The translations under genes and the position numbers were made by a program. This document shows, piece after piece, positions 5,126-25,404 of a stretch of DNA of 32,961 nucleotides. The DNA is taken from the sequence record SRR31156797_9239; one strand, given 5' to 3'. The first letter of the stretch is position 1. Each line of letters begins with the position of its first letter. The notes beneath the pieces were generated by a model. That model searched no databases, was not told where the DNA came from, and saw only the letters and a program-made list of their open reading frames with translations.

Positions 5126-6186
5126 TCGCGCACACCTAACCTTCTATCCAACAGCAACATATCCGCAATGGTCATAGCCATCATGGCCTTGAGTACAGGA
5201 TTAATGCGTGGAATAGCCGCTATATCATGCCTGCCGCCAATGGTGATAGACGTTGCTGTTCCATCAGTGGTGACAGTACTCTGCTCCTGTGAAATGGACG
5301 GAATCGGCTTGATGAATGCCCGCGCCACAATATCCTGACCGGATGAAATACCACCAAGAATACCACCTGCATTATTGGACAAAAAACCATCAGGCCCTAT
5401 GGGGTCATTGTTGAGACTCCCCAGTGAGCAGGACGCATTCATACCGGAACCAATTTCCACACCTTTGACCGCCCCCACAGACATAAGGGCATAGGCAAGT
5501 CGTGCATCCAGTTTGTCGAACACTGGCTCCCCGAGTCCGGCAGGAACTGATGTAGCCCGAACTTCCACCACGCCACCCAAGGTATCACCCTGAGACTTTA
5601 CGTCTTTCACCCGATCATTCCAGACATCAACAATATCAGGGTCAGGACTAAAGTAGGGACGATCCTGTGCACCTTCAAAATCATACGCATTCACAGGGAT
5701 ACCGCCCAACTCCACGGTATAGGCATAAATGGCAATACCTTCGCTTCGCAGAAGCTCTTGGGCAATGGCTCCTCCGGCAACACGAGAGACTGTCTCACGC
5801 CCCGACGAACGACCGCCTCCGCGATAATCACGAAAACCATACTTGGCAGTGAATGAATAATCAGCATGACCGGGCCGAAAAACATCCTTGATTTTTGAGT
5901 AGTCATGCGAACGCTGGTCTGTATTGGGAATAGTAAACCCGATGGATGTCCCCGTTGTTCTGCCTTCAAATACACCGGACAGAATCTTGACTTTATCGGC
6001 TTCCTTGCGTGCGGTGGAAGCCAGTCCACCCTGCCCCGGCCTGCGTTTATCAAGCTCCTGTTGAATCATGGACTCATCAAGGGGAATTCCTGCAGGGCAA
6101 CCGTCAACCACGCCCCCAAGCCCGGGACCATGGGATTCTCCAAAGGTGGTCAATTGAAAAAGATTGCCAAATGTATTGCCGCTCAT
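5122..6186 (-). CDS. aroC: Chorismate synthase
   Basis: MSGNTFG...TTFGESHG, RPGHAD, GGGRSSGRET, NNAGGILGGIS and GRHD signatures. ATG 6186 with GGAG SD preferred over 6192. Confidence 0.98.
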   Translation of the reverse strand: MSGNTFGNLFQLTTFGESHGPGLGGVVDGCPAGIPLDESMIQQELDKRRPGQGGLASTARKEADKVKILSGVFEGRTTGTSIGFTIPNTDQRSHDYSKIKDVFRPGHADYSFTAKYGFRDYRGGGRSSGRETVSRVAGGAIAQELLRSEGIAIYAYTVELGGIPVNAYDFEGAQDRPYFSPDPDIVDVWNDRVKDVKSQGDTLGGVVEVRATSVPAGLGEPVFDKLDARLAYALMSVGAVKGVEIGSGMNASCSLGSLNNDPIGPDGFLSNNAGGILGGISSGQDIVARAFIKPIPSISQEQSTVTTDGTATSITIGGRHDIAAIPRINPVLKAMMAMTIADMLLLDRRLGVRD

Positions 6187-9941: not shown

Positions 9942-10007
9942 AAGAGGTGTCGTCTTTTGGTAGAATCTTCCGATAAATTCATCCCCAGCGACTCAAAGGG
10001 TATACCT

Positions 10008-10042
10008 TTGAAAATCATTCTGTCGCCTTCAATGATTTTCAA
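10008..10042. repeat. Perfect 12-bp AT-rich inverted repeat, possible operator
   Basis: TTGAAAATCATT-N11-AATGATTTTCAA. Confidence 0.6.
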
Positions 10043-10077
10043 TGAGATAAAAAGACACTGCAATTCAACTTTTTTTG

Positions 10078-10106
10078 TTGCCAAATCAATAAGTAGTAAT
10101 TATTAT
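10078..10106 (+). promoter_or_regulatory. Putative sigma70 promoter of the ferredoxin (leaderless geometry)
   Basis: TTGCCA-N17-TATTAT, then 6 nt to ATG 10113; no SD. Confidence 0.65.
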
Positions 10107-10112
10107 TGATTC

Positions 10113-10331
10113 ATGACAAACGAAAACACTTGCACAAAGCACCGCGAAATTGGAATCGAGTTAGGCGATTGCCGCCTGTGTCAGGGGTGTATCGAAATGA
10201 ACCCGGATGTCTTTGAATGGGACGAGAATCTTGACATGCCGTATGTCTGTCGCTCCAAGGTGACAGAAGAAGAGGTTCGGGACATCATGAATTCATGCCC
10301 TGAAGGCTGTATCGTCTTTGTGGATTGCTAA
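10113..10331 (+). CDS. Small mono-cluster [4Fe-4S]/[3Fe-4S] ferredoxin
   Basis: CRLCQGC...PDVF...CPEGCI pattern; acidic 72 aa. Confidence 0.88.
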   Translation: MTNENTCTKHREIGIELGDCRLCQGCIEMNPDVFEWDENLDMPYVCRSKVTEEEVRDIMNSCPEGCIVFVDC

Positions 10332-10354
10332 TCAAAAAACATAATTCCTAAAAA

Positions 10355-10384
10355 AGGATAGCCGGGAATTTTCCCGGCTATCCT
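10355..10384. terminator. Terminator hairpin between convergent genes, probably bidirectional
   Basis: AGGATAGCCGGGAA-TT-TTCCCGGCTATCCT perfect inverted repeat, with an A-run on the left. Confidence 0.85.
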
Positions 10385-10423
10385 ACGTTTATAGCAACCA
10401 TCATTTTCATATATTAACGACAA

Positions 10424-10969
10424 CTAACACGACTCGCTGCAACACGTTCCGTAAACAAAACCACAATACGTATGGAACACTCGGGTCTGTTTTTCTCGTT
10501 GCTCATCGGTCAGCGGCTTCATTTCAACTTTGGACACCATCTCCACCAAATCTGTAAAATCAGGAACCGCGTCCATGCTTTGAGCGATTCTCTCACCGCT
10601 TTTCACATCCATTAACGACGCATCCATAGTATCGGTAACCAAAGCATACGGTACAGGGCCGCCGTCGATGAGTCGGGCCGCACACACGGTCTCACGTTCA
10701 AATGTCCCGACATTTCCTGCACAGAAAATGATAATGAAGATAGGCTTGTCTTGCTCGTCATACAGCACATAATCAACAGGCCGCTCAAACTCTTCACCGT
10801 CCACAGTATAAGACAGCAAAACCTTGGCTTTGATTCGTTCCTTGGGATATCCCTTTTCTTCCACCAATAACTTCACAAGCAATTGCCGAAATTCTTCAAA
10901 AGTTGTCTCGTCAATTTCTTCGCCACTCAAATAATCACGGAGCGTTCCGCCCAAACTCGTTTCATGCAT
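10424..10969 (-). CDS. Stand-alone protein resembling the type I restriction enzyme HsdR N-terminal domain, with a Cys-rich tail
   Basis: EEFRQ...LVEEKGYPKERI...RPVDYVLY...PYALVTD resembles HSDR_N_2-type proteins. Ends YCGFVYGTCCSESC. AAGGA SD. Confidence 0.7.
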   Translation of the reverse strand: MHETSLGGTLRDYLSGEEIDETTFEEFRQLLVKLLVEEKGYPKERIKAKVLLSYTVDGEEFERPVDYVLYDEQDKPIFIIIFCAGNVGTFERETVCAARLIDGGPVPYALVTDTMDASLMDVKSGERIAQSMDAVPDFTDLVEMVSKVEMKPLTDEQREKQTRVFHTYCGFVYGTCCSESC

Positions 10970-11105
10970 AGAATCACATCCTTATACTCAATAAATAACT
11001 CTCCCCCAGGCCAGAAGCAAGAGGGAGAGGATCATTTCCGTAAAGGCTACAAACAATAATCGAAAAGAATTAAAGAAATTGAAAAGACAAAGACAGCCCG
11101 GTTAC

Positions 11106-11264
11106 TCAAAGTTTATACTTCGGCGGTGGAATCTCTGCGTCACAATTACAGCACCGTACAGTTTTCCCCTTACAGCAAAGCTTCACTTTTTGAACCTTGC
11201 CGCAGGCTGGGCATTTACGCCACAAATCCAGAGCTGCCTGAAAAGCAGAATAAAATGCCCACAT
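11106..11264 (-). CDS. Small (52 aa) Cys-rich zinc-ribbon-like protein
   Basis: GAGAGGTG SD before ATG 11264. Sequence MWAFYSAFQAALDLWRKCPACGKVQKVKLCCKGKTVRCCNCDAEIPPPKYKL contains two CxxC knuckles. Confidence 0.65.
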   Translation of the reverse strand: MWAFYSAFQAALDLWRKCPACGKVQKVKLCCKGKTVRCCNCDAEIPPPKYKL

Positions 11265-11336
11265 TGTGTCACCTCTCTGGTATCGTCTGTTTGCCAAAAA
11301 GCTTATACAGCTCGCCTCTCACCAACAGACTCACCG

Positions 11337-11732
11337 TTACACTACGTTACTGTCAAGAATTAGTGATGAAAGCGTTACCATTCCAACAATCTCGCCCATG
11401 TGTTCTACCGGCGCACGGTGCACTCCCGTGCGATAAATCAACCGAATAGCATACCGAATATCCATAGTCGCTGGGACAGTAATCACAGGCTTTGTCATCA
11501 CTTCATATACACTGACATCCTCGCCTTCACGGCCAGGTACAATAACATCTTTAACCAGATCCATTATTGTGACGATAGCCCACGCGTCGTCTTCATTACG
11601 TTTATTCACAAGCAGTTCAGAAGTCTTGTACTTACGCATCATAGCTGCAGCGTCTTTCACAGAGGCCATGCCATCAATACTCAAAATTTCAGGGTGCATG
11701 ACATCTCGAACTCGCACTATTGATAGTGACAT
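11337..11732 (-). CDS. Stand-alone tandem CBS-domain protein
   Basis: VRDVMHP..., VYEVMTKPVITV and IVGMVTLS form a CBS pair. GGAGG SD. Confidence 0.92.
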   Translation of the reverse strand: MSLSIVRVRDVMHPEILSIDGMASVKDAAAMMRKYKTSELLVNKRNEDDAWAIVTIMDLVKDVIVPGREGEDVSVYEVMTKPVITVPATMDIRYAIRLIYRTGVHRAPVEHMGEIVGMVTLSSLILDSNVV

Positions 11733-11771
11733 TCATCCTCCTTATTCTTTCCCGTAAGTATTTATTTCATA

Positions 11772-12119
11772 TTAAAAGTATGAGTCACGAACCTTTTCCT
11801 TGAACCGCTCAATCTGACTTTCCATGCCGATGACATCTTCAACAGGCAAAACAAACGCTATACCTGTCCCCGGCTCATGAAACTGTCCCGTAGTTTCAAT
11901 GGCTTTCAGCACAGGTTTAACCGTGTGCTCCTCCAACAGAAATAGAACGATGTCAGTCTGATCCTCAAGCGTTAGGCCAAAAAAGGTGTGCGCTTCTCGC
12001 ATACCTGTACCGCGAGCGGTGATAATGGTCGCACCAGTGGCTCCAACTTCCTTTGCCGCATCAACAATGGAATCCGTTATATGCGTCTTGACCGATGCGA
12101 GGATGAGTTTGAATCTCAT
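11772..12119 (-). CDS. PII-like signal transduction protein (non-GlnB/GlnK)
   Basis: GATGATIITARGTG and EPGTGIAFVLPVE loop motifs; 115 aa. Overlaps the upstream stop codon (ATGA). Confidence 0.9.
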   Translation of the reverse strand: MRFKLILASVKTHITDSIVDAAKEVGATGATIITARGTGMREAHTFFGLTLEDQTDIVLFLLEEHTVKPVLKAIETTGQFHEPGTGIAFVLPVEDVIGMESQIERFKEKVRDSYF

Positions 12120-12904
12120 AGGTTTCTCCTATCTTTCTTCGACTTTCGACGAGCCGCCCAATCAGTGTACTGGGCATACCCCATGACGGTTATTATCGGG
12201 AACAGACTGGCAAACGCAATAAGACCGAATCCATCCAAAGCCGGATTTCTCCCAGGAACAGACTCCGCCAAACCAAGTCCCAAAGCAGCAACTAACGGTA
12301 CTGTGACAGTAGAAGTTGTTACCCCGCCAGAGTCGTACGCCAAGGCTATCATCTTTTTCGGCGTCACAAATGTTTGCAAAATCACTATGACATACCCTGC
12401 TAAAATATACACATATAGAGGCGTGCCGGTCACTATACGAAAGGTCCCCAAAGCTATTCCTACCGCAACCCCTATAGCAACAGTGATACGCAAGCCCCAC
12501 TGGCTTATTACGCCACCCGAAACTTCACTTGCCTTAATGGCTACAGCCAACAAAGAAGGTTCGGCAATAGTGGTTGAAAATCCGATCATTGCTGCAAATA
12601 CATACACCCAACCATATGAAGACCAACAAGTCATGGATGTGATGTCGCCATCAACGGCCGTGAATGAGGGACATGAGAGTTGAAAAGCCATAATCTTTCC
12701 CACAGGGAAAAGAGCCTTATCGAGTCCGATGAGAAACAACGTGAGACCAAGTAAGACATACACTCCTCCGACGACAAGACGACGGAGATGAGGGATGGGT
12801 TGCCGCAAAACAAAAAGCTGAAAGAACACGATCAAAATCACTATCGGAAGAATATCCCGAAAAGTTGCAAGAAAAGTTGCTGAAAATTCGATCAAAATAT
12901 TCAT
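12116..12904 (-). CDS. DUF1538-family membrane protein (second copy)
   Basis: [27 protein letters not shown] and [13 protein letters not shown]; multiple TM helices. Confidence 0.88.
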   Translation of the reverse strand: MNILIEFSATFLATFRDILPIVILIVFFQLFVLRQPIPHLRRLVVGGVYVLLGLTLFLIGLDKALFPVGKIMAFQLSCPSFTAVDGDITSMTCWSSYGWVYVFAAMIGFSTTIAEPSLLAVAIKASEVSGGVISQWGLRITVAIGVAVGIALGTFRIVTGTPLYVYILAGYVIVILQTFVTPKKMIALAYDSGGVTTSTVTVPLVAALGLGLAESVPGRNPALDGFGLIAFASLFPIITVMGYAQYTDWAARRKSKKDRRNL

Positions 12905-12914
12905 GTTTTCTCAC

Positions 12915-13682
12915 TCAGCCAAAAACAAATAAACCGTAACCCATAACAAAAATCATGGGGAGCAATGATGCAAAGGCAATAAGGCCAAAACCATCAAGTA
13001 ACGGGCTACGTCCTTTGATTATCGAGGCAAGCCCAACTCCAAGGGCTGCGACCAATGGAACAGTCACGGTTGAAGTGGTAACACCACCTGCGTCATACGC
13101 GATACCAACTATTTCTTTAGGAGCAACAAGAGTCATTAACATAACAATAACATAGCCCCCAATGATCAAATAATGAACAGGCCAGCCCCGAAGAATGCGT
13201 AACACACCAACAAGAATGGCCACGCCCACGGAAAAAGCGACGGAAAGCCTCAGACCCATGGCGTACCGGTTCATGGACGATTCATTTGCTGCTATGAGAT
13301 CACCCTGCGCCGCAATACTTGCTGCTTCTGCAGAAACCGCTATAAGAGCCGGTTCAGCAACAGTTGTCGAAAACCCAAGAGCAAAAGCAAAAGTCAAAAG
13401 CCAAAACAAACTCCCTTTTCGAGCCAAGGCATGGGCCATGTTTTCACCGACAGGGAACAGCCCCATCTCCAGTCCCTGAATGAAAAGCGTCAAACCAATA
13501 ACGACAAGCAATCCACCGAAAATCACACTCCCTAGATCCGGCAATGACTGCTTAAGAACCACGATTTGGAAAAAAGCGATAACCAAAATGATCGGCAACA
13601 AGTCTTTGAAAGAACTCCATAGCTTTTTCCGCACGCTACGAAAGACAATGCCCAGCCGCGATGACATATGCTGTACTTTCAT
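12915..13682 (-). CDS. DUF1538-family membrane protein (first copy)
   Basis: [27 protein letters not shown] and [13 protein letters not shown]; paralog of the next gene. Alternative start at 13667. Confidence 0.88.
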
Positions 13683-14027
13683 AATCTGATTTGCTTTCCT
13701 TTTACTGCGGACGAAAACTGTAAATAAAGATTTTTGTCAAAATGTTATTATTACAAAGTCTGTTCCACAATTGCCTTTGCGGACACATCAATTCTTCACG
13801 CTCACAACAAATCACATAACAATCTAAAATCATTGAAAACATAAATAGAAACCCAAAAACTTTTAATCTCGATGTTCTTGTTAAATTAGACGCCTTTCTC
13901 ATTCAGACGGGTCATTATCTCCCGACAAGACACTCTCAATTATCAAATGAAACCATTCTGTCTCTATAAAAAACAACAAAGGGAGATTTTACCCCGGCGG
14001 AACAAAATGTATCAACGAAAAATAAAA

Positions 14028-14064
14028 AACCGCCCGGTTCAGCATAAAGCCAAACCGGGCGGTT
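14028..14064 (-). terminator. Intrinsic terminator of the nuo-like operon
   Basis: 12-bp perfect stem AACCGCCCGGTT/AACCGGGCGGTT, followed on the minus strand by a T-rich tract; about 20 nt after the nuoN stop. Confidence 0.85.
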
Positions 14065-14086
14065 GTTATTCATTTTCTACCAGAGG

Positions 14087-15535
14087 CTAGTGACCGCCAC
14101 CGGAAACAATCCCGTACAAGCTTTCACCTGCAGCGATGGCAAAATTGAACATCGGTGCCGGAATGATACCAATGATCAAAACGGCTGCTGCCAACATGCC
14201 TGCACCAGCTGAAGCAAACCAGCTATTATCTGGTGCCGGGACATCACCGGGCACCGTCTCTTCTGTAAAGGCGTGACGGAACAGACTCAGATAATAGTAG
14301 ATAGCAATGGCTGAATTCAACACCAAAGTGATGACCAACCAGTTATATCCATGATCCCATGCTGAAGTGATAAGGAAGAACTTGCCCATAAAGCCCATGG
14401 TCGGCGGCAAGCCAACAAGAGCAAAAGCGCCGACCGCAAGTGAGAATGCGAGTACCGGTGCTTTCTTATACAGACCGTTCAAATCACTCAACTTCAAATT
14501 ACGTCCATCAACGGCTACACGACTAACGATCCAGAAGACCAACAGGTTCATGACCAGATAGGCCAAGCCATAGAATGCGGCTGCACCAACACCCTCAGGA
14601 GTGCCACTGACCAAACCGACCATTATGTACCCAGCGTGTGCCACAGACGAGAATCCAAGCAAACGCTTGAGGTCTGTCTGAGCCAGTGCGGACAGGTTAC
14701 CCCACGTCATGGATAAAGCACCAAGAATCGCAATAATCGTGGTAATCTCCAGACCGGGCTTGAGCAGCACGGCAAGACGACACAAAACGACAATGGCGCC
14801 CATCTTGGGCATGGTAGCCACAAATGCAGCAGTCTCGTTACTCGCTCCCTGATAAACATCTGGGCACCAGAAGTGGAACGGGAACAAAGCCAATTTAAAG
14901 AACATACCGGTCAGGAACAATGTCAGACCAACAACGGCCATGGGCTGATCGGCAAACGACCAGGATTTGTTCATGAGTTCAGCGATGTACGTAGTATGCT
15001 GAGAAGCCATGATGTAAGACAAGCCATACAGAGCCAATGCCGTGGCTACGGCACCAAACATGATGTACTTGATACCCGCTTCAGCCGCACCCTTTGATTT
15101 GGCGCGTAACGGGATGATTGCATACATGGAATAAGAAGCCAGCTCCAAAGCCAGATAGATGGTAATCAACTCCACGGAGGAAGCGAGCATCATCAGTCCG
15201 AGGGTGGAGAAACCAAGCAACATATAGTAATCAGCCCGTTTCCCTTCAACAAGCGTCGGCTGACGTGATGCGTTAAGTACAGTCACGTAAAAGCCAAACG
15301 CAATAGCGATCTTGAAGAACTGGGACATCAAATCAACTTTGTATACATCCCAGAACATGGTTCCGTGAAGGCCAAAGCCAGTAATGGCTACAAAGAAGGC
15401 AAGTCCCGCACCAAAGGGGATCCATTTTTCAACCGGAGGTTTCCACTCCCTGTTGCCGAGAGACTGGACCAAAAGGACCAGAACAAGACAAAAGAAGAAC
15501 AGTTCCGGGACAAGCGCAGTGAGATGGAAGTTCAC
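14087..15535 (-). CDS. nuoN: Complex I antiporter-like subunit N
   Basis: GTG start with GGGGA SD. LALELAS, EAGIKY, FKLALFPFHFWCPDVYQGA, KRLLGFSSVAHAGY and GLPPTMGFMGK. Confidence 0.93.
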   Translation of the reverse strand: MNFHLTALVPELFFFCLVLVLLVQSLGNREWKPPVEKWIPFGAGLAFFVAITGFGLHGTMFWDVYKVDLMSQFFKIAIAFGFYVTVLNASRQPTLVEGKRADYYMLLGFSTLGLMMLASSVELITIYLALELASYSMYAIIPLRAKSKGAAEAGIKYIMFGAVATALALYGLSYIMASQHTTYIAELMNKSWSFADQPMAVVGLTLFLTGMFFKLALFPFHFWCPDVYQGASNETAAFVATMPKMGAIVVLCRLAVLLKPGLEITTIIAILGALSMTWGNLSALAQTDLKRLLGFSSVAHAGYIMVGLVSGTPEGVGAAAFYGLAYLVMNLLVFWIVSRVAVDGRNLKLSDLNGLYKKAPVLAFSLAVGAFALVGLPPTMGFMGKFFLITSAWDHGYNWLVITLVLNSAIAIYYYLSLFRHAFTEETVPGDVPAPDNSWFASAGAGMLAAAVLIIGIIPAPMFNFAIAAGESLYGIVSGGGH

Positions 15536-15547
15536 GTCTCAATCCCC

Positions 15548-17080
15548 CTATTTCTTGCCCGCAAGGACGTTCAAAACGTCAGCGGCAGCAGTTTGCAACG
15601 GTTGTTCAGTTTCGATGGAAGCGACCTTTCGCTTATCGAAATCACCCAACAACTTATCAATTGAAGGATTGATAATCTTGTAAAACGGAGCAGGAGCCAA
15701 GCCGATCCAGAGTACGAATACGGCAGGAATGGTCAACATGATCCATTCGCGAGCATTAAGATCACGCCATGTTTTGGCGGAACTAGGTCTGCCCCAAGCC
15801 ATCTTCAAACTCACACGGAACATGTAAGCTGCGGCCAATAATGCACCAGGAATACACAAGAAACCGATTATTACGGACGACTTGAATGCGCCAGTCAACA
15901 CCAACATTTCACCGACAAACCCGTTGGTTCCCGGGAAGCCGAATGATGCCAGAGCCATAAAGCCCCAGAAGAACATGAAGGCTGGCAAATATTTGCCAAG
16001 GCCCAAGTTGTCCTTGATGTCACGACTATGACTGCGTTCATAAACGGTACCAATCAACATAAAGAGTGCGCCTGTAACGATACCATGGTTCAGCATCTGG
16101 AAGAGCGCACCTTGGACACCCTGTTGATTAAACAGGAATATGCCCAAAGTAACAAAGCCCATATGGCCTACCGAAGAGTAGGCAACAAGCTTTTTAATGT
16201 CAGTTTGTCCCAGCGCGATAGCCCCGCCATACAAAATGGACACGATGGAAATCGCGATCATCATGGGAGCGAAGTACTCACTGGCGGCTGGAGTCAGCGG
16301 CAGGCAGAAACGCAGGAAACCATAAGTTCCCATCTTCAGCAGGACAGCCGCCAGTATGACGGAACCAGCAGAAGGCGCCTGAACATGCGCTGCGGGCAGC
16401 CATGTATGGAACGGGAACATGGGGACCTTGATGGCGAAGGCCAAAGCCATTGCCAAGAAAGCCCAGAACTGAAAGCGGAAGCTAAAGTTCATATTCATGA
16501 GTTCCGGGATAGAAAAGGTACCACCCGTAATCCTGAATGCAACGATAGCTGCCAGGAGCAAAGTGGAACCTGCCAACGTATACAGGAAGAACTTGAGCGA
16601 TGCATATTTGCGATCATCGCCACCCCAAACTGCAATAAGCAGATACATGGGGATAAGCATGGCTTCCCAGAACACGTAGAAGAGGACCAGATCCAGGGCG
16701 CAGAAAACGCCGAGGACCGCAGAGGTCATGAACAGCAAACAGAAGTGGAATTCCTTCTCCCGTTTGCCGATGTAGGTCCAAGAACACATGACACATAGCG
16801 GCAAGACCGCGATAGTCAACAGGACCATGAGTATGCTGATTCCATCTATGCCGAGGTAGTACTGAAGTCCCCATTTGTGGACCCAGTCGATTTTCTCGAC
16901 GAACTGGAATTCAGCGTTCATTGTAAAGCCGGTCAAAGGTATGGCCAGCAGACACTCTATAATGGACGCTACCATAGTATAGTAGCGTACCACCTGCGGC
17001 GACCGCAGGAAGAAGAGTCCGCACGCCGCGACCAGCGGGAATGCTATCAGTATCGTAAGAACCGGATATCCGAAGTCCAA
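15548..17080 (-). CDS. nuoM: Complex I antiporter-like subunit M
   Basis: GIDGIS, FYVFWEAMLIPMY, KFFLYT, KVPMFPFHTWLP, LLKMGTYG and FPGTNGFVGE. TTG start with GGAG SD. Confidence 0.95.
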   Translation of the reverse strand: MDFGYPVLTILIAFPLVAACGLFFLRSPQVVRYYTMVASIIECLLAIPLTGFTMNAEFQFVEKIDWVHKWGLQYYLGIDGISILMVLLTIAVLPLCVMCSWTYIGKREKEFHFCLLFMTSAVLGVFCALDLVLFYVFWEAMLIPMYLLIAVWGGDDRKYASLKFFLYTLAGSTLLLAAIVAFRITGGTFSIPELMNMNFSFRFQFWAFLAMALAFAIKVPMFPFHTWLPAAHVQAPSAGSVILAAVLLKMGTYGFLRFCLPLTPAASEYFAPMMIAISIVSILYGGAIALGQTDIKKLVAYSSVGHMGFVTLGIFLFNQQGVQGALFQMLNHGIVTGALFMLIGTVYERSHSRDIKDNLGLGKYLPAFMFFWGFMALASFGFPGTNGFVGEMLVLTGAFKSSVIIGFLCIPGALLAAAYMFRVSLKMAWGRPSSAKTWRDLNAREWIMLTIPAVFVLWIGLAPAPFYKIINPSIDKLLGDFDKRKVASIETEQPLQTAAADVLNVLAGKK

Positions 17081-17106
17081 AACTAGCTCTCCTTAGATTG
17101 TCCGGC

Positions 17107-18903
17107 TTAGCCGAAGTACCAAACCAGGGCGAAGATGCCCAAGCCGAGGACGGCGGCCAATGCCAGGTAATCCTGCAGATTGGCAGTCTGGACTTTCGCC
17201 CCTGCCCTGCCGATGTTCCTCACAGTGTAAGCACCACCGTCCACCACTGTATCGATGCCCTTCTTGTCAAACCAAGAAGTACCATCCCCCATACCGATGA
17301 GCGAACGCAAACCAATGGTATTATAAACCTCGGTCCAAACGTCATCCACCTTCGAAATCGGCCAACAAACAACACGCATGAGCGTAGTGCCGATGAAACG
17401 ATAGAAGATATCGAAGTCCAGATTGAGCTTCGCATGCGGAGTAATGATCTCGCGGGTCAAGTAGAAGGCCAAGCCGGAGAAACCGAGCAACAGACCAGAG
17501 TTGATGACCTTGTCGAGATGCCAGGGCTCAAATGCATGTTCTACCGGGAAAGGCAGATATTGATACAACATATGAGGGTAGACACCTTGGGCGATGCAAA
17601 GCAGGCCGCAAATTGCCATACCGACGTACATGTTGACTGGCAGTGGCTTGACTTCGCCGACATATTCTTTTTTACCGCCCCAGAACGCAAAGTACGGGAG
17701 CTTGATACCGACAGAGATAAACGTACCCACTGCGGCAATCTCCATTCCGAGAGCCAAAATCGTGCGATGGGCTTCAGCCGCACCGGCGATAGTCATGGTT
17801 TTCGAAATAAAGCCGTTGAAAAGGGGCATACCGGAGATGGACAGGGCTGCGATCATATACAAAACCATAACCCAGGGCAGTTTGTAAGCAAGCCCACCCA
17901 GTTTATCCAGCTTGGCAGTACCGACCGAATAAAGAATCGCGCCGGTTCCCATGAACAGAAGGCCCTTATAAAGAATATGGGCATAAGCATGAGCCACTGC
18001 GCCGTTGAGCGTCATGGCCGTACCGATGCCGATACCCGCCACCATGTAACCCACCTGGGATACAATGTGGTAGGACAGAATCCGTCGAGCATTATTTTCA
18101 ATACACGCGTACAAAACACCAAAAACAGCCATACAGGTACCGGCGATAGCAAGGACTTCCCATCCTGCATAGCCGCGTGCCAGCACATAGACTGCCGTCT
18201 TGGTGGTAAAGGCGCACATGTACACAGCACCCGCAACGGATGCGCGAGGGTATGCGTCAGGCAACCAAGCATGCAAAGGCACGACTGCAGCGTTGACACA
18301 AAAGCCGATCAGGATCAGCCAATCATACAGTTGGGCCCCGGAGGGATCCACTGCATTGAAAGCAAAGCTCCCTGTGGCCTTGTACTTGAGCAGTAATCCG
18401 CCGAGCAGGAACAGGCCGCCAACGGTATGGTACAAGAAGTACCTGAAACCGGCACCAACAGACTCTTCAGTCCGGGCCTGCCAGATCAGGAACGTGGAAC
18501 CGATGGACATAAGTTCCCAAAACAGGAAGACCGTCAGCAAGTCGCCTGCAAACACGCAGCCGAAGCCACCTGCCACATAAAGCGAACCGCAAACGTAATG
18601 CCCCCTGTCCTCGACGTGCATGCCGTAGATGGCACCGATGAACGCGATAACCGAAAAAACCTGGCCGAAAACGATGGACAATTTGTCCACACGCCCCAGT
18701 ACCAGAGCTTGATCAAGATATTCCAACGCACCATACGTACCCGGTTCCACCGTGAAGATGGAATAGAGCGCGATAAGCGGTGCAAGTAATGCCAATGTGC
18801 CGCGAAACGCCTTGTTCATCCAAAGCGCTTTGGGGACAAAGGGCACAACAATAACCAATGCAAGGAAGGCCATGGAGGGATGGATGAACATACTAGTCTC
18901 CAT
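17107..18903 (-). CDS. Antiporter-like subunit with an MrpD-type core and a NuoL-like C-terminal extension
   Basis: FLFWELM, LHAWLPDAYP, ILSYHIVSQVGYM and ILYKGLLF. The C-terminus FDKKGIDTVVDG...VQTANLQDY plus a TM resembles the NuoL lateral helix and anchor. Confidence 0.85.
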   Translation of the reverse strand: METSMFIHPSMAFLALVIVVPFVPKALWMNKAFRGTLALLAPLIALYSIFTVEPGTYGALEYLDQALVLGRVDKLSIVFGQVFSVIAFIGAIYGMHVEDRGHYVCGSLYVAGGFGCVFAGDLLTVFLFWELMSIGSTFLIWQARTEESVGAGFRYFLYHTVGGLFLLGGLLLKYKATGSFAFNAVDPSGAQLYDWLILIGFCVNAAVVPLHAWLPDAYPRASVAGAVYMCAFTTKTAVYVLARGYAGWEVLAIAGTCMAVFGVLYACIENNARRILSYHIVSQVGYMVAGIGIGTAMTLNGAVAHAYAHILYKGLLFMGTGAILYSVGTAKLDKLGGLAYKLPWVMVLYMIAALSISGMPLFNGFISKTMTIAGAAEAHRTILALGMEIAAVGTFISVGIKLPYFAFWGGKKEYVGEVKPLPVNMYVGMAICGLLCIAQGVYPHMLYQYLPFPVEHAFEPWHLDKVINSGLLLGFSGLAFYLTREIITPHAKLNLDFDIFYRFIGTTLMRVVCWPISKVDDVWTEVYNTIGLRSLIGMGDGTSWFDKKGIDTVVDGGAYTVRNIGRAGAKVQTANLQDYLALAAVLGLGIFALVWYFG

Positions 18904-19153
18904 AATAGTCCTCCTTCCTGGCTATAAACGGCTGAACCACTTTCTTCATAATGATAACCATGGCCAGCCCCACGATAAGACCGAATCCGGCAAAGAACCC
19001 GGGGTACTTATCGAGACCAAAGTGCGGGTGATGTGTGACAAACGGAACATTGAGCACCAAAAGCACTCCCAGCGTCACGAAGAATATAATTCTCCACGCT
19101 TTCCAGTTGTCTCTCCATTTGGCGAGTAATCCGCCCAAACCTTTTTGACTCAT
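18893..19153 (-). CDS. Small two-TM membrane protein within the nuo-like operon
   Basis: 86 aa; two hydrophobic helices flanking HHPHFG; ends RKEDYYGD. GGGGA SD; overlaps the next gene. Confidence 0.8.
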   Translation of the reverse strand: MSQKGLGGLLAKWRDNWKAWRIIFFVTLGVLLVLNVPFVTHHPHFGLDKYPGFFAGFGLIVGLAMVIIMKKVVQPFIARKEDYYGD

Positions 19154-19163
19154 ATCATTCCCC

Positions 19164-20711
19164 CTAGAACTTGCCGAGAACGTTGACGAAGTTCAGGAAT
19201 GTCTGCGGATACAGACCCAAGAACACCGAGATGAATGCCGTGATCATTAACGGCACGACCATGGTCATGGACGGCTCGTTGTATTGCCCGATATTGGCCT
19301 CCGGTTTGGGAGCCTTGAAAAAGGCACGATACAAAATGGGCACGAAGTAACCGGCGTTCAATGCCGTACTGAGAAGCAGTGCGACGAGCAGCGGCCACTG
19401 GTGCGCATCAAGCGTACCGTTGATCAAGTACCATTTGGAGACAAAACCGCAAGCGGGCGGCATACCGATCATTGACAGGGAGGCTATACCAAAAGCACCA
19501 AAGGTGAGCGGCATTCTGCGTCCCAAACCATCCATGAGGCTGATCTTCTTCAGGTGGCAGGCGACATAAATGGCACCCGCAGCCATAAAGAGTGTGATCT
19601 TGGAAAAGGCGTGGTGGGCGATGTGCATGACACCACCTTGTACCGCCGTATCCACCAGCATGGTTACACCAACAACGACATAAGAGAGCTGGGCTACCGT
19701 TGAGTAAGCCAGTCGCGCTTTAATATCATCCTTGGTCAAGGCGATGAACGAAGCCACCGTCAAAGTAAAGGCCGCAATATAGGCCGTTCCCAATCCGATG
19801 CTCAGATCACCAAGCCAGGTACCGGGTGCGCCAACATAAATCTGACTCATTGTCAGCATGGCAGCGGTCTTGGTCCCGAAGGCCGAGAGCACGATACGGC
19901 AGACACAGAAGACACCGGCTTTAACAACGGCCACAGCATGCAGCAAAGCCGAAACCGGAGTCGGCGCGACCATTGCTGAAGGGAGCCAGTTGTGGAACGG
20001 CATGAGAGCCGCCTTACCGATACCAAAGATGAACAACCAGTACGTGAGGGCCACCAGTCTGGGATGTTCGGCAATAACTTCAGCGGAGAACATACCGTTC
20101 TGGATGTCACCCAAATTGAAGTCCAAATTGCCGACCAATACGTAGGTAAGCACCATTGCGGGCAGGAGGAAGAGCTTGGAAGTACCCATCAAGTAGACAA
20201 TGTACTTGCGAGCGCCAATCTTGGCAGCTTGATCCTCATGATGATAAACAAGCGGATACGTGAATACGGTGATCACTTCATAAAAGAGATACAATGTAAA
20301 CACGTTGGCAGAAAGAGCCACACCGACGGCGCCAAAAATAGCCACCGCAAAACAGATGTAATATCTGGTCTGTGCGTGCTCGTTCAATCCCCGCATGTAA
20401 CCGATGTTATAACTGGTTACAAAGAACCAGAGAAACGGCGCGATCAGAGCAAAGACCATGCTCAGCCCGTCGGCCGCAAATGCTATTGATATTCCGGGCA
20501 TGATGGTGGTGACTTTGTAGTACAGCACCTCACCGCCCAGTACCCTCGGAGCCATACAAAGCACCGAACCGAACGTCAAAAACGCGCCGATAAAGCTCAT
20601 GGCCTCGCGTCTGTTTTCATCCCCTCGTCCGAGGTAGATAAAAAGCGGCACAAGGAGAGTGATCACCACCGGCAGAAGAATTTGACTATATGTAGTTACG
20701 CCTTCCATCAT
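19164..20711 (-). CDS. Antiporter-like subunit (monovalent cation/H+ antiporter family, NuoL/MrpA-type core without the C-terminal tail)
   Basis: LYLFYEV, GKAALMPFHNWLPSAMVAPTPVSALLHAVAVVKAG, RLAYSTVAQL and HHAFSKITLF. Confidence 0.88.
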   Translation of the reverse strand: MMEGVTTYSQILLPVVITLLVPLFIYLGRGDENRREAMSFIGAFLTFGSVLCMAPRVLGGEVLYYKVTTIMPGISIAFAADGLSMVFALIAPFLWFFVTSYNIGYMRGLNEHAQTRYYICFAVAIFGAVGVALSANVFTLYLFYEVITVFTYPLVYHHEDQAAKIGARKYIVYLMGTSKLFLLPAMVLTYVLVGNLDFNLGDIQNGMFSAEVIAEHPRLVALTYWLFIFGIGKAALMPFHNWLPSAMVAPTPVSALLHAVAVVKAGVFCVCRIVLSAFGTKTAAMLTMSQIYVGAPGTWLGDLSIGLGTAYIAAFTLTVASFIALTKDDIKARLAYSTVAQLSYVVVGVTMLVDTAVQGGVMHIAHHAFSKITLFMAAGAIYVACHLKKISLMDGLGRRMPLTFGAFGIASLSMIGMPPACGFVSKWYLINGTLDAHQWPLLVALLLSTALNAGYFVPILYRAFFKAPKPEANIGQYNEPSMTMVVPLMITAFISVFLGLYPQTFLNFVNVLGKF

Positions 20712-20713
20712 AG

Positions 20714-21022
20714 TTATTCCTTCAATGTAGTGATGTCACTGATTCTGGCGGATTTGAATCGCCGTGCAACGACCACGATGATTGCAAGGACCAATGTAGC
20801 CTCAGCTGCGGCAAGTCCCATGACAAACAAGGTGCCGAGTTGACCAAGAACCGCACTGAATTCAGTCAACTGAGCCGCTGCCACCATGGACAGTCCTGCA
20901 CCGTTGAGCATGAGTTCCACCGAGATCAACATACCGACGAGACTCCTGCGTTGCGTCAAACCAAACAGGCCCGCACACAGAAGCATCAACGCGACAATTT
21001 GATAAAGGGTCAGAGCACTCAT
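20714..21022 (-). CDS. nuoK: Complex I subunit K
   Basis: MLISVELMLNG and LAAAEA; three TM. Confidence 0.95.
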   Translation of the reverse strand: MSALTLYQIVALMLLCAGLFGLTQRRSLVGMLISVELMLNGAGLSMVAAAQLTEFSAVLGQLGTLFVMGLAAAEATLVLAIIVVVARRFKSARISDITTLKE

Positions 21023-21532
21023 TTATTTCTTCCCCCTTTTTTCCCATGTCAGAAGCACTGCTCCGGACATTGCCACCATGAGGATGACCGAGATCAACTC
21101 AAAGGGCAGGAAGTAGGAACCGAGCAATCCCTGACCGAGTTCCTTGATGGTTACTTCAACAGGAACCGCCACAGAATCGACTGGCTTGGTCATAACCAGC
21201 CAGCCTAAAATGGCAGCAGGTGACAAGGTTGCCGCCAGTCCGTAGACATACGTCTTCATGGAGGCATATCCGCTTTCGTCACCGCCCTTTTCCGCTCGAG
21301 TCAACATGACTGCGAAGAAAATCAGGACACTGACTGCACCGACATAGATAAGAAGTTGCATAAAAGCCATAAAAGGCGTCGCCAAGAGTAGATACATCCC
21401 AGCCACACCGATCAAGGTGGTGATAAGTCCCACCAAGGCGCGAACAAGACTACTACTCGTGACGGCGACAATGGCCCCGCCCAAAATGATGAGCGTGTAC
21501 ACGCAAAATGCTACTTTTGCCATGACTTCCAT
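21023..21532 (-). CDS. nuoJ: Complex I subunit J
   Basis: QLLIYVGAVSVLIFF and YFLPFELIS. Start reassigned to ATG 21532 (GGAGG SD). Confidence 0.93.
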   Translation of the reverse strand: MEVMAKVAFCVYTLIILGGAIVAVTSSSLVRALVGLITTLIGVAGMYLLLATPFMAFMQLLIYVGAVSVLIFFAVMLTRAEKGGDESGYASMKTYVYGLAATLSPAAILGWLVMTKPVDSVAVPVEVTIKELGQGLLGSYFLPFELISVILMVAMSGAVLLTWEKRGKK

Positions 21533-21533
21533 A

Positions 21534-22121
21534 TTACGCCTCCTTCTCTGCCGCGGCCGGTTTGGCCTCGGTTTTGGGAGCCGGTGCGGACAATTCCGTG
21601 GCCTGCTCCTTGAGCCTGGCGAGAAGATCAATGTTCATCTCTTTCCGTGAAGTCGCCACCCAATACATATTATTAGAGAACTTCAACGACTTGGCCGGAC
21701 AATTATCGATACATGTGCCGCACAGCGAACACAGCGTATAGTCGTAGGTGAATTTCAACGGATTCTTGGGAGCTTTAGGCTTGACAACCTTCTCTCCAGC
21801 TTCCTTGGCAGCAGCCATGGCCGCTTCCTGCTCAGGCGTAGGCTTGGGAGCCTTCTGCTTGACGACTTTCAAGCACTTACTCGGGCAGTTGGTCACACAC
21901 ATCATGCAGGAAATGCACTTGGGCATGGCCGGATCCTTGGGCTTACCGATCAATTCGATATGCCCGCCGTATGTATTCAGATTCTCGTCGTCAATGACCT
22001 GCCGGGGATAGTGGACAGTGATCAAAGGCTTGCAAAAATACTTACCCGTAATCTTGAGTCCAACGATCAAACTCCAGCAGTCGAGAATCGGCTGTATTAC
22101 TTTTTCTCTGAATTTACCCAT
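21534..22121 (-). CDS. nuoI: Complex I subunit I (2x[4Fe-4S])
   Basis: ITVHYP; CISCMMCVTNCP and CSLCGTCIDNCP. Confidence 0.92.
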   Translation of the reverse strand: MGKFREKVIQPILDCWSLIVGLKITGKYFCKPLITVHYPRQVIDDENLNTYGGHIELIGKPKDPAMPKCISCMMCVTNCPSKCLKVVKQKAPKPTPEQEAAMAAAKEAGEKVVKPKAPKNPLKFTYDYTLCSLCGTCIDNCPAKSLKFSNNMYWVATSRKEMNIDLLARLKEQATELSAPAPKTEAKPAAAEKEA

Positions 22122-22131
22122 ATCTACACCC

Positions 22132-23106
22132 CTACAACTTGATGATCAGCGCGGTGGCCAACAGGTTGAATGTGGCCAACGGCAGCAACCATTTCCAGTT
22201 GATGTTCAGCAGTTGGTCAAACCGAACGCGGGGGAAGGTCCAACGAGCCCAGATCATGACGAACAGCAAAGCGTACGTCTTGAGAAGCATCCACCACCAT
22301 CCTTCGATGCCGGGGATAGGGCCATGGAATCCGCCCAGGAAAAGGACGGAACAAACGGAGCACATGACAACCATGTATCCATACTCAGCCATGAAGAAGA
22401 GACCAAATCCCATGGAGGAATACTCCGTATGGAAACCGGCAGTCAGTTCGGACTCGGCCTCGGCCAAATCAAACGGAGCGCGGTTGGTCTCACCAAACAT
22501 TGCGATAATAAAGATAATGAATGCCAGCGGCTGCTTCCAGACAAACCAGTTGCCAATGTGACCAGCCTGCAACGAGGTAATCTCGGTCAGGCTCAAGGTA
22601 CCAGTCATAAAGGAAATGGCCAGTACGGTCAGAAGCAATGGAATTTCATATGCAACAGTCTGCGACACGGCACGAGCGGCACCGAGAACGCCCCATTTAT
22701 TGTTGGATGCCCAACCAGCCAAAATCACCGCCAGTCCGTTAAAACTGGAGAAGGCCAGAATCAGCAACAAACCAAGGTTCACTTCCATCCCTGTCAGCAC
22801 TGGGCCATACGGAATGGGCATAAAGAGCAACAACACCGGAATCATAGACAAAATTGGAGCGAGCCAATAAAGGACCGGGTCCGAATTGTCCGGAGTCAAG
22901 AGTTGTTTACCCATGAGTTTCAAACCATCTATAAGTGGCTGGAGAGCGCCGTGAGGACCAACTTCAAACGGACCGGGCCTGCGCTGAATGTGGCCCGCGA
23001 ACTTACGTTCGCAGTAGACCAACACCAGGGCATTGAGACCCAGCCAGACCATGGCCCCGATCATGGCGATGACCAGAGGTATCAGGTTCTGTAAGAATTC
23101 GTTCAT
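22132..23106 (-). CDS. nuoH: Complex I subunit H
   Basis: ERKFAGHIQRRPGP, QPLIDGLKL, ETNRAPFDLAEAESELTAGFHTEYS and PRVRFDQL. Confidence 0.97.
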   Translation of the reverse strand: MNEFLQNLIPLVIAMIGAMVWLGLNALVLVYCERKFAGHIQRRPGPFEVGPHGALQPLIDGLKLMGKQLLTPDNSDPVLYWLAPILSMIPVLLLFMPIPYGPVLTGMEVNLGLLLILAFSSFNGLAVILAGWASNNKWGVLGAARAVSQTVAYEIPLLLTVLAISFMTGTLSLTEITSLQAGHIGNWFVWKQPLAFIIFIIAMFGETNRAPFDLAEAESELTAGFHTEYSSMGFGLFFMAEYGYMVVMCSVCSVLFLGGFHGPIPGIEGWWWMLLKTYALLFVMIWARWTFPRVRFDQLLNINWKWLLPLATFNLLATALIIKL

Positions 23107-23114
23107 TATTCCCC

Positions 23115-24287
23115 CTACCTATCGATTTCCGGAATAATCAGGTCCAGACTACCCAAAATGGCGACAGCGTCGGCCAGGATAGTTCCCGTTGCGGCCTCAG
23201 CAAATGCGCTCAAGTTGGAGAAACCCGGTGCGCGCAGCTTGATGCGGTACGGGACCTTAGTTCCATCGGAAACGGCGTAAACGCCAATCTTTCCGCGTCC
23301 GCCCTCAACATTGAAGTAAGCTTCGCCTGCCGGCGGCTTCATGGACGGTTTGGGGGCCTTCTTAATAATATGGGCACCTTCTGCGGAGTCCAATTGCTCA
23401 AGAGCTTGCTCAATAATACGCATTGACTGTTCCATCTCGGCCACGCGGACATGATACCGTCCAGCCGAACATGCAGTGTCCTGCGTCGGGATATCGAAAT
23501 CGAAACGATCGTACACGGAGTACGGCTCGTCCTTACGCAGATCATAAGGGACACCCGCACCACGAACGACAGGACCGGTGCAGCCATAACGGCGGCACAT
23601 ATCCTGATCCATGATACCTACTCCCTCAATACGTCTACGCAGAATAAGGTTTTCAGTGACGAGATCATGGTACATGGGCAGTCTTTCCCTGAAATGCGGA
23701 ATAAACGCCTTAATCAACTCGAGACACTTGTCGTCCAAATCCATCTGCACGCCACCGACACGGAAATTGGAATAGGTCAATCTGGAAGCCGACGGCCTCT
23801 GCAGGATGTCCAAAATCATTTCACGATCGTCAAATGCGTACATGATGGGGGTAAACGCGCCAAGGTCAAGGATGTAGGCTCCCCACCACAACAAGTGGGA
23901 GGTCAGACGGTTGAACTCGGTCATAATGACCCGCAGATATTCCGCCCTTTCCGGCACCTCAATGCCCATCAGTTTTTCGACTGCGCCCACGTAGGCCCAA
24001 TTCCAGGCCATGGCGTGTCCGTAGTCGACGCGGCCCATATTGGGGATATAACCACCCCAAGTCTGGGTCTCGCCCATTTTCTCATGCATGCGGTGCAGGT
24101 AACCCAGTACGGGTTCGGCTCGGACGATGTACTCACCGTCCACCTCGATCACGATCCTCAGCACGCCATGCGTTGACGGATGCTGCGGACCCATATTGAT
24201 GATCAGGGTTCCGTCCTGCTTCCCGGCCTCGAACTTCTGGGTGTAGAAATCACCCTTCATTTGTTCTAAATTTTGGTAAGCCGACAT
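23115..24287 (-). CDS. nuoD: Complex I subunit D
   Basis: NMGPQHPSTHGVLR, GYLHR, RVDY and C-terminal GSLDLIIPEIDR; no NiFe CxxC motifs. Confidence 0.96.
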   Translation of the reverse strand: MSAYQNLEQMKGDFYTQKFEAGKQDGTLIINMGPQHPSTHGVLRIVIEVDGEYIVRAEPVLGYLHRMHEKMGETQTWGGYIPNMGRVDYGHAMAWNWAYVGAVEKLMGIEVPERAEYLRVIMTEFNRLTSHLLWWGAYILDLGAFTPIMYAFDDREMILDILQRPSASRLTYSNFRVGGVQMDLDDKCLELIKAFIPHFRERLPMYHDLVTENLILRRRIEGVGIMDQDMCRRYGCTGPVVRGAGVPYDLRKDEPYSVYDRFDFDIPTQDTACSAGRYHVRVAEMEQSMRIIEQALEQLDSAEGAHIIKKAPKPSMKPPAGEAYFNVEGGRGKIGVYAVSDGTKVPYRIKLRAPGFSNLSAFAEAATGTILADAVAILGSLDLIIPEIDR

Positions 24288-24328
24288 ACACTCTCAGTCC
24301 GGTTTATATACCGACCGGTTGCCCCGGC

Positions 24329-24856: not shown

Positions 24857-24858
24857 GA

Positions 24859-25404
24859 TTAACCCTCCACCTCGGCGGCGACGGGCCACCAGCGTTTACC
24901 GGTGATCAGACGCTGCAACTCGAAGAACCCCTCAAGCAGACCTTCCGGTCTCGGAGGACAACCCGGAACATAGACATCAACGGGGATCAACGTATCCACG
25001 CCTTCGACTACATTATAGTTATCCTTAATCTTAAAGGGACCGCCGGAAATGGCACAGTTACCCATGGCAATAACCCACTTGGGTCCGGGCATCTGTTCGT
25101 ACAGCCTGACTACGGCTGGCGCCATCTTCTTGGTCACGGTGCCTGCGACGATCATGACATCAGCCTGACGCGGGGAGGGCCTGAAAACCTCCGCCCCGAA
25201 CCGGGCCATGTCGAATCGAGCCATACCGGCAGCCATCATTTCGATAGCACAGCACGCAAGTCCGAATGTCATGGGCCACAAAGACATAGATCGACAGACG
25301 TCGAAAAGGTCCTGCGCCAATTGAAGGTTGACGATGGGCGGCTCCATATAATGGTTGCCCGTCGTCAAAAAGTCCTTGGGAACTACTGAATCCTGCGCGG
25401 CCAT
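24859..25404 (-). CDS. nuoB: Complex I subunit B (N2 cluster)
   Basis: [25 protein letters not shown] and VPGCPPRPE. Start reassigned to ATG 25404. Confidence 0.96.

Follow-up and report, generated by a model that had tools for sequence, protein, structure and literature searches.

The four adjacent genes at positions 11,337 to 13,682 of sequence record SRR31156797_9239 (a stretch of 32,961 nucleotides, all of which is called the window here) encode two DUF1538 membrane proteins that resemble the antiporter subunits UmpA and UmpB (here A and B), a divergent PII-like signalling protein, and a stand-alone CBS pair. A PII-like gene directly follows the transporter genes across several phyla, and in part of the family a CBS gene follows in turn. 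The reading that we favor, to which we give about an even chance, is that the operon encodes a UmpAB-type cation/proton antiporter with two gating sensors, a dedicated PII-like protein and a CBS protein. All four open reading frames (ORFs) are present on the minus strand where an earlier sequence-only reading of this DNA had placed them:

12915-13682, minus strand: subunit A, 255 residues, DUF1538, UmpA-like, predicted N-in/C-out
12116-12904, minus strand: subunit B, 262 residues, DUF1538, UmpB-like, predicted N-out/C-in, with a basic tail
11772-12119, minus strand: PII-like signalling protein, divergent, 115 residues, with a Pfam P-II match
11337-11732, minus strand: stand-alone CBS pair (Bateman module), 131 residues, two CBS stretches

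The junctions between these genes are as tight as that reading had described. A gap of 10 nucleotides separates the stop codon of A from the start of B, the start of the PII-like gene overlaps the stop codon of B in the sequence ATGA and has AGGAG upstream, and a spacer of 39 nucleotides, with AAGGAGG before the CBS start, lies between the PII-like and CBS genes.

The conservation of this arrangement was determined by a pattern scan in which each species was represented by one genome, and the best 80 loci with A-type genes (62-87% identity) were compared. By their record titles these loci belong to the Thermodesulfobacteriota, Bacteroidota, Gammaproteobacteria, Magnetococcales, Longimicrobiales and Nitrospirota. 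The PII-like gene was counted in the loci with at least 450 nucleotides after B (n=74) and the CBS gene in those with at least 700 nucleotides after the PII-like gene (n=67); three other loci stop before B is complete. A PII-like gene was found directly 3' of B, on the same strand, in 74 of the 74 loci with room for it, and a CBS gene was found 3' of the PII-like gene in 56 of the 67. Because the same order recurs in all 74 related loci, the linkage is far beyond chance. The order A-B-PII was also found in 27 of 30 further gammaproteobacterial loci; one of the others is cut by a contig end, and the PII-like gene is out of view in two (L088, and L109, where A stands alone). Additionally, in five distant DUF1538 loci of Clostridia and Alphaproteobacteria with 29-34% identity to A, taken from annotated plasmid or chromid records of Paraclostridium, Vescimonas, Peptoclostridium, Methylocystis and Chelativorans, a gene named 'P-II family nitrogen regulator' lies directly 3' of the transporter in 5/5. 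In the Gammaproteobacteria the PII-like stop and the CBS start overlap by 4 nucleotides (e.g. L083), which suggests coupled synthesis of the two proteins.

Natural gene fusions point in the same direction. In three Clostridia loci the transporter is encoded by one fused gene of ~500 residues and the PII gene is about twice its usual length. Two DUF1538 domains and a PII domain are joined into a single chain in two sequence clusters, the first represented by P0121, P0271 and P0272 (659 residues; contigs of up to 22.9 kilobases (kb)) and the second by P0273 (639 residues; a 14.3-kb contig). The shorter DUF1538-PII chains P0134, P0139 and P0157 lie on contigs of 1.2-2.2 kb and probably represent pieces of such fusions. 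In P0121/P0271 and P0273 the PII domain is attached to the C-terminus of the transporter, an end that is predicted to be cytoplasmic. The guess in the sequence-only reading that the gene association is widespread is borne out by these fusions together with the counts for the PII-like and CBS genes. Of its wider proposal, a heteromeric transporter with two sensors, the conserved four-gene unit stands, and control by the sensors is retained here as a proposal. The ORFs that flank the loci are heterogeneous (74 upstream and 66 downstream) and no neighbor beyond the unit is conserved; the unit is therefore self-contained.

The family membership of the transporter subunits is clear. Subunit A matches Pfam DUF1538 (PF07556) with an E-value of 2.3e-67 and 226.8 bits over model positions 1-211, and subunit B with an E-value of 3.6e-66 and 222.9 bits over model positions 1-209 (cut-off 22.6), which bears out their earlier assignment as two paralogous DUF1538 membrane proteins; the two are 48% identical. 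The NCBIfam models for the Na,Li,K/H(+) antiporter subunits UmpA (NF041627) and UmpB (NF041628) distinguish them reciprocally, as A scores 368.3 bits with the UmpA model versus 198 with the UmpB model, and B scores 314.6 bits with the UmpB model versus 212 with the UmpA model. The window thus has one A-type and one B-type gene, adjacent and with A first.

The accessible parts of a 2017 paper on UmpAB from Halomonas zhaodongensis describe a DUF1538 pair with Na+(Li+,K+)/H+ antiport activity (PMC5484666). Growth of E. coli KNabc was rescued by umpA and umpB together and by neither gene singly, the two proteins were co-immunoprecipitated, and in everted vesicles Na+, Li+ and K+ were exchanged for H+ in a pH-dependent manner (K0.5 of 0.26-0.46 mM; PMC5484666). 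It follows from this work that the sequence-only reading was out of date in stating that DUF1538 has no assigned function, that its phrase 'unknown substrate' was too strong for a family with a published Na+(Li+,K+)/H+ antiporter, and that its 'uncharacterised system' has a transporter core that belongs to the published UmpAB family. The likeness to UmpAB extends to the tight coupling of two neighboring DUF1538 paralogues, to the order of their genes, and to ~7 helices per subunit. The differences are that A and B score under the equivalog cut-offs of the models, that the host here is a Desulfovibrionaceae-type anaerobe, and that the description in the accessible parts of the Halomonas paper takes in neither partner proteins nor an opposite orientation of the subunits. 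In that text a term search for PII, P-II, CBS, topology, antiparallel and inverted gave no hits, and umpB is the last ORF described on the cloned Halomonas fragment (PMC5484666). No Halomonas name was found among the best 120 of at least 7985 matches in a protein search with a gammaproteobacterial PII-like query. Extracts of papers on cable bacteria name UmpAB homologues in connection with salinity adaptation, with 56% identity to UmpAB in one of them (PMC10030654); the cable-bacterium homologue among our loci (L006) is 81% identical to A. DUF1538 is also listed among growth-pH-predicting features in the accessible part of one 2026 paper.

The two subunits share a pair of polar motifs. Motif 1 (STTxAEPxL) is present as STTVAEPAL and STTIAEPSL in A and B, and motif 2 is likewise present in both ([14 protein letters not shown] and [14 protein letters not shown]). 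When 12 family sequences with identities as low as 39% are aligned, motif 1 is invariant at its T, E and P, and at least 90% of the rows keep the D of motif 2. AlphaFold2 models were obtained for A (predicted local distance difference test (pLDDT) 92.3, predicted template modelling score (pTM) 0.83) and for the natural fused homologue P0122 (pLDDT 88.8, pTM 0.87). In the models each domain consists of long helices 1 and 2, a broken pair, two long helices, a second broken pair, and a final long helix. The first broken pair of A is modeled at residues 92-108/111-126 with the break at the A-E-P of motif 1, and the second at residues 189-201/207-221 with the break at TTSTV. The confident models therefore place both motifs where two short helices meet at a break, as expected from the earlier description of them as polar and helix-breaking, and their predicted positions fit helix-breaking ion-site loops. 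The broken pairs would be either re-entrant hairpins or discontinuous membrane-spanning helices, and the predicted number of membrane crossings is odd in either case. The conserved carboxylates (E110, D197 and D230 in A; E115, D191 and D224 in B) would suit cation and proton binding.

According to the positive-inside rule the orientation of a membrane protein can be read from the bias of its lysine and arginine residues (K+R). The N-terminus and loops 2-3, 4-5 and 6-7 were counted as one set and compared with the remaining set, using window A and 71 locus-derived rows of alignment A5 for A-type proteins (10 database representatives were left out) and all 72 rows of alignment A6 for B-type proteins. 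In A-type proteins the N-terminal-side set has a mean of 9.2 K+R versus 2.2, with the same sign in 72/72 (12 versus 2 in window A). In B-type proteins the means are 4.4 versus 10.6 and the bias is reversed in 72/72 (4 versus 13 in window B, where the C-terminal tail carries 7 of the K+R). From the odd number of crossings and the opposite bias it follows that A is predicted to be N-in/C-out and B to be N-out/C-in, and that the two should form an antiparallel heterodimer. In the fused forms the linker is short and modeled with low confidence (residues 242-259 in P0122), and A outscores B as the match to the first half in 29/29; the short linker, the A-like first half, and the PII domain on the predicted cytoplasmic end all agree with the antiparallel orientation. 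This build resembles that of antiparallel paralogue pairs such as the paired SMR proteins and DUF606, in which adjacent homologues have an opposite positive-inside bias and are fused elsewhere. The DUF1538 subunits differ in being much larger, with ~7 helices and two broken helices each. No discussion of the DUF1538 family in the context of antiparallel pairs was found in the open full-text literature, which leaves most subscription journals uncovered.

No solved structure matched the sequence of A at E <= 1. With the model of the fused homologue, neither the best Foldseek match (E-value 6.2e-3, with template modelling scores of 0.16-0.21) nor the best VIA-align match (Z 7.8 on 64 coiled-coil residues) is convincing. 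The NCX_Mj exchanger (3v5s) was the only VIA-align match with broad coverage of the fused homologue, and it was rejected as a fold relative since its Z of 5.9 (root-mean-square deviation 6.9 over 187 residues) is under the helical noise level of the tool. With A alone, the best matches had an E-value of 0.21 in Foldseek and a Z of 6.3 in VIA-align. In the ESM Atlas, where no structure search was made, there was no usable match outside the DUF1538 clusters. The predicted DUF1538 fold thus has no convincing solved relative.

These observations also bear on what is transported. It is conceivable, and in our judgment rather unlikely, that the same architecture serves another physiological substrate, such as K+ or NH4+, a divalent cation, or a solute taken up with Na+, and that the published antiport is a side activity of overexpression. 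The known PII-transporter pairs handle ammonium and bicarbonate, many of the gammaproteobacterial carriers are, by their record titles, autotrophs or methylotrophs, there is one functional study only, and no solved fold relative hints at a substrate. On the other side, the three conserved carboxylates per subunit suit cations, and genes for carbon fixation or nitrogen assimilation (RuBisCO, carboxysome, carbonic anhydrase, amtB, glnA) are absent from the 140 flanking ORFs, whereas cation-transport genes recur, flanking 11 of the 80 loci (a count without a statistical control). The sub-millimolar K0.5 values for Na+, K+ and Li+ in the accessible text of the Halomonas study (PMC5484666) likewise favor the antiport.

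The third gene product was correctly recognized from its sequence as PII-like. It matches Pfam P-II (PF00543) with 45.1 bits, above the gathering score of 25 (E-value 1.3e-11, residues 4-98), and its best solved relative is GlnB (2eg1; E-value 1.6e-7). A profile of 105 orthologues matched GlnB/GlnK-type chains only among the solved structures, with E-values of 4e-7 or weaker, and there was no SbtB chain among the 30 matches at E <= 0.01. The databases name the sensor 'P-II family nitrogen regulator'. The level of canonical GlnB/GlnK proteins is not reached with the NCBIfam P-II equivalog NF008111 (20.6 bits versus a cut-off of 202). In the nearest genome (G001) the PII-like protein is the weakest of four PII-family proteins (44.6 bits versus 67.6-78.9) and is therefore an extra paralogue beside the canonical ones.

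The residues retained and lost by the PII-like protein were determined by alignment to 2eg1 and among the 105 orthologues. The glycine/threonine scaffold (G26, G29, T31, G37, G39) is retained and is invariant or at least 90% conserved. The positions of K90, R101 and R103, which we take to be the basic ATP-phosphate ligands, are occupied by I87, G98 and E100; I87 is found in at least 90% of the sequences and G98 is invariant. Of the residues that are presumably likewise canonical in PII proteins, the K58 region is removed by a 5-residue deletion, and R47 and Y51 of the T-loop are replaced by L49 and D53. Mg-ATP/2-oxoglutarate sensing and uridylylation thus seem unlikely for this protein, and a nucleotide pocket of some kind may remain; 2-oxoglutarate, which the sequence-only reading had listed as a ligand to be screened, is an unlikely one as the canonical binding positions are replaced or deleted. 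The T-loop (residues 35-57) is at least 90% conserved at 12 of its 23 positions across several phyla, as would be expected of a surface that touches a conserved partner. Prediction of a 1:1:1 complex of A, B and the PII-like protein with alignments gave an interface score (ipSAE) of 0.00 in both runs, which were made without controls, and this speaks neither for nor against binding.

GlnK gates the ammonium channel AmtB, and SbtB regulates the Na+/bicarbonate symporter SbtA. As with GlnK-AmtB, the PII gene adjoins the transporter gene, the T-loop is conserved, and the two are sometimes fused; the differences are an unrelated transporter family, the residues L49, D53, I87, G98 and E100, and a genomic context free of nitrogen genes. 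As with SbtB-SbtA, a PII-like protein is dedicated to an adjacent Na+-linked secondary transporter and would have a ligand set unlike that of canonical PII; here the transporter family differs, and no SbtB chain appears in the profile search.

The same features leave room for a different direction of control, in which the PII-like and CBS proteins are outputs and the transporter is a sensor or anchor that sequesters the PII-like protein, which controls cytoplasmic targets once it is released. Canonical PII proteins have many targets and their membrane sequestration by AmtB is known, and the conserved T-loop does not indicate which partner it contacts. That some lineages have PII covalently joined to the transporter speaks against a diffusible regulator, and no other conserved neighbor offers itself as a target; we consider this arrangement very unlikely.

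The fourth gene product matches Pfam CBS (PF00571) in two stretches that form one Bateman module (E-value 3.8e-19, 69.2 bits), in agreement with its earlier description as a stand-alone CBS pair. Its residues 5-129 align to the CBS module of CBS-CP12 (5nmu; E-value 1.3e-18), which is the best solved match. Residues R45, D49, D58, E77, M79, K81, P82, Y94 and G117 are invariant in 59 CBS orthologues. D58 closes the T-x-x-D stretch of the first CBS motif, presumably the ribose-binding position, for which the second motif has no equivalent. Transporters with cytosolic CBS pairs include MgtE, CNNM/CorC, ClC and OpuA, where the CBS pair serves as an adenosyl-ligand or ionic-strength sensor on an ion or osmolyte transporter. 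The difference here is that the CBS pair is a separate protein of 131 residues and is found in only part of the family.

It is highly improbable in our view that the PII-like and CBS proteins are instead constitutive structural or assembly subunits without a ligand, which would, for example, trimerize or stabilize the transporter. The loss of the canonical phosphate-binding residues from the PII-like protein and the doubled length of the PII genes in the Clostridia loci would fit such a role. It is opposed by the retention of the glycine-rich scaffold (G26, G29, T31, G37, G39) and of the invariant Asp of the first CBS motif, and by the activity of UmpAB in E. coli without a PII-like or CBS protein, as given in the accessible account.

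In the antiporter reading that we favor, A and B would together form a secondary transporter that most likely exchanges monovalent cations (Na+, Li+, K+) for H+, and their antiparallel heterodimer would be the split form of an inverted-repeat transporter. The likely ion or proton sites are the E of STTxAEP and the D of YDxGG, at or near the helix breaks, and the D of DGFG at the start of the last helix. The PII-like protein, presumably a trimer, would dock on the cytoplasmic face via its conserved T-loop and gate transport according to a bound small ligand, probably some adenine nucleotide and not Mg-ATP/2-oxoglutarate. The CBS pair of this clade would provide a second input, from an adenosyl ligand or from ionic strength. 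Sensor binding, gating, the identity of the ligand, and the substrate in this organism are all points that we infer.

The remaining candidate signals are the adenylate energy charge, cAMP, and an ion or ionic strength. Cyclic di-AMP (c-di-AMP) was also among the ligands that the sequence-only reading had put forward. Among 401 sampled Gammaproteobacteria none gave a match to the diadenylate cyclase (DAC) domain (as a positive control, 11 of 14 reference genomes did), while the UmpA model matches 122 of 400 sampled genomes of the same class. For this reason c-di-AMP cannot be the general signal, though it is possible in this organism alone; G001 has two DAC matches.

Several points weigh against the favored reading. 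First, the CBS gene is absent from 11 of the 67 loci with room for it, in which no common replacement gene was seen, and from 5/5 of the distant loci; because it is missing from both sets, the CBS protein is not essential to the system. Second, the equivalents of K90, R101, R103 and the K58 region are lost from the PII-like protein, so nucleotide binding by this protein is not assured. Third, according to the accessible account the Halomonas pair functioned in E. coli with neither PII nor CBS present, and therefore these partners are not needed for activity. Fourth, the functional data come from one laboratory and one heterologous host and concern a protein that is ~55% identical, and the physiological role may differ from the antiport seen in KNabc vesicles. 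Finally, both subunits miss the equivalog cut-offs of the NCBIfam models, with A at 368 versus 490 bits and B at 315 versus 500. The UmpA cut-off was passed by 0 of 400 sampled Gammaproteobacteria (best score 408) and therefore marks close Halomonas kin and not the functional family; its level appears to have been set to suit such kin.

Although PII proteins rank with the most widespread of signal processors, few of their targets in the membrane are understood. We put it at a little under even that DUF1538/UmpAB with its dedicated PII-like protein constitutes, next to AmtB-GlnK and SbtA-SbtB, a third class of PII-gated transport, and a very widespread one, in which the transporter is an antiparallel A/B heterodimer of a fold without a solved relative, a PII variant without the ATP/2-oxoglutarate ligands reads a different signal and ties cation/pH homeostasis to the metabolic state, and the CBS protein of some clades adds a second layer. 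The DUF1538-PII pairing is as strict as that of GlnK-AmtB, and it is common, as shown by the presence of the transporter in 122 of the 400 sampled Gammaproteobacteria. A link between DUF1538 and PII or CBS was not found in the open full-text literature, as far as its texts were accessible and with most subscription journals uncovered, and there appears to be no description so far of the obligatory PII-like partner, of the clade-specific CBS partner, or of the antiparallel build. The sole functional paper on the transporter, in its accessible parts, studied UmpAB without these partners. If the proposal is true, the salt and pH homeostasis of many marine and sediment bacteria would be under post-translational control by a metabolite signal. 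The family would also provide a clean system for how split antiparallel subunits become inverted-repeat transporters, and all of the pieces are small and expressible in the existing E. coli KNabc assay.

Other DUF1538 proteins were observed in addition to the PII fusions. In P0123 (724 residues; six contigs, the longest of 688 kb) the two DUF1538 domains are fused to a cytidylate-kinase-like P-loop domain, PF13189, and not to PII, and at L015:1257-2504 (minus strand) a protein with a receiver domain and PF13189 is encoded just upstream of the cluster; this domain may be an alternative nucleotide-binding regulator. P0165, P0176, P0187, P0218 and others (630-800 residues; G445, G486, G522, G586, G709) have ~130 extra residues between the domains. 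In these long single-chain forms the second domain also has insertions, and there is no Pfam assignment for the extra parts. A C-terminal extension of ~135 residues in the fused proteins P0227 and P0268 was not recognizable as a PII domain (hhalign probability 0.5%). No Pfam family matched this extension at E <= 0.1 besides DACZ_N, for which the P0227 extension is sub-threshold (E-value 0.052, 13.7 bits versus a cut-off of 24).

Signalling genes adjoin the cluster in some loci. In several Desulfobacterota loci the neighbor is a histidine kinase with dCache or a response regulator of the sigma-54 type (upstream in L003, L013, L019, L020 and L034, and upstream in L014 and L042), and in L003 a receiver-domain-like frame at 5560-5924, judged by eye from the DNA, ends ~30 nucleotides before A. 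In one case, a Desulfobulbus metagenome-assembled genome, a diadenylate cyclase with DACND/DACNH sensor domains and an MscS-type channel flank the cluster (L056:4181-5629 and L056:7995-10631, both minus strand).

Upstream of the four genes lies the nuo operon, whose last gene, nuoN, ends at 14087. The following features of the neighboring DNA were identified:

14028..14064, minus strand: intrinsic terminator-like hairpin 3' of nuoN, with a 16-bp stem of which 10 pairs are G-C, followed by a T run
13986..14015, minus strand: sigma-70-type promoter-like site, TTGATA-18-TAAAAT, 10/12 matches, a consensus match only
11106..11264, minus strand: small zinc-ribbon-like ORF, 52 residues from ATG, CxxC...CxxC, directly 3' of the cluster

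The hairpin stands between the nuo operon and the transporter operon, and the promoter-like site is a candidate start of the operon transcript, which would have a leader of ~300 nucleotides. Since the hairpin and the promoter-like site follow nuoN, the four genes would form a transcription unit of their own, judged by sequence. Rfam matched nothing in 10900-14200 at E <= 1, and thus no known riboswitch lies in the ~300-nucleotide leader. A linkage to the nuo operon was considered and rejected, as NuoN, the HSDR_N_2 protein, the ferredoxin and YchF recur in 0 of the 80 related loci.

In some lineages only, the operon may include a fifth gene that is not annotated, the small zinc-ribbon-like ORF. 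Comparable small ORFs lie on the same strand directly 3' of the cluster in L002, L003, L005, L009, L043 and L044, and ORFs of ~50 residues with two CxxC motifs are found in the window, in G001, and at L003:8448-8630, L005:4230-4421, L009:8303-8470, L043:7401-7568 and L044:3714-3881. The small ORF has no Pfam match at E <= 1e-8, the sole threshold applied.

Further observations in the window concern the DNA around the operon. The nuo (NADH:quinone oxidoreductase) gene string at 14087-25760 (minus strand) looks complete, of which only the last gene was checked with Pfam (Proton_antipo_M). After the cluster, on the same strand (10424-10969, minus), lies a gene for a protein of 181 residues with an HSDR_N_2 domain, which is like the N-terminus of type I restriction R-proteins; no strong terminator stands between this gene and the cluster, and the adjacency is not kept elsewhere. 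A weak sigma-54-like motif was found at 13752-13767 (minus strand), with 3 matches in the window against an expectation of 0.64; since 3 matches also arise in 2 of 100 shuffles, no claim is drawn from it.

DUF1538 was found in only 19 of 301 genomes sampled from the phylum to which the window belongs and in 2 of the 9 from its family, and G001 has exactly one A/B pair. Close PII-like homologues bear the names Maridesulfovibrio and Pseudodesulfovibrio, and these names point to a marine member of the Desulfovibrionaceae. The G+C content of 10001-14000 is 43-46% versus 49-53% in the adjacent nuo genes, and the patchy distribution together with this lower G+C would fit the horizontal spread of a self-contained module.

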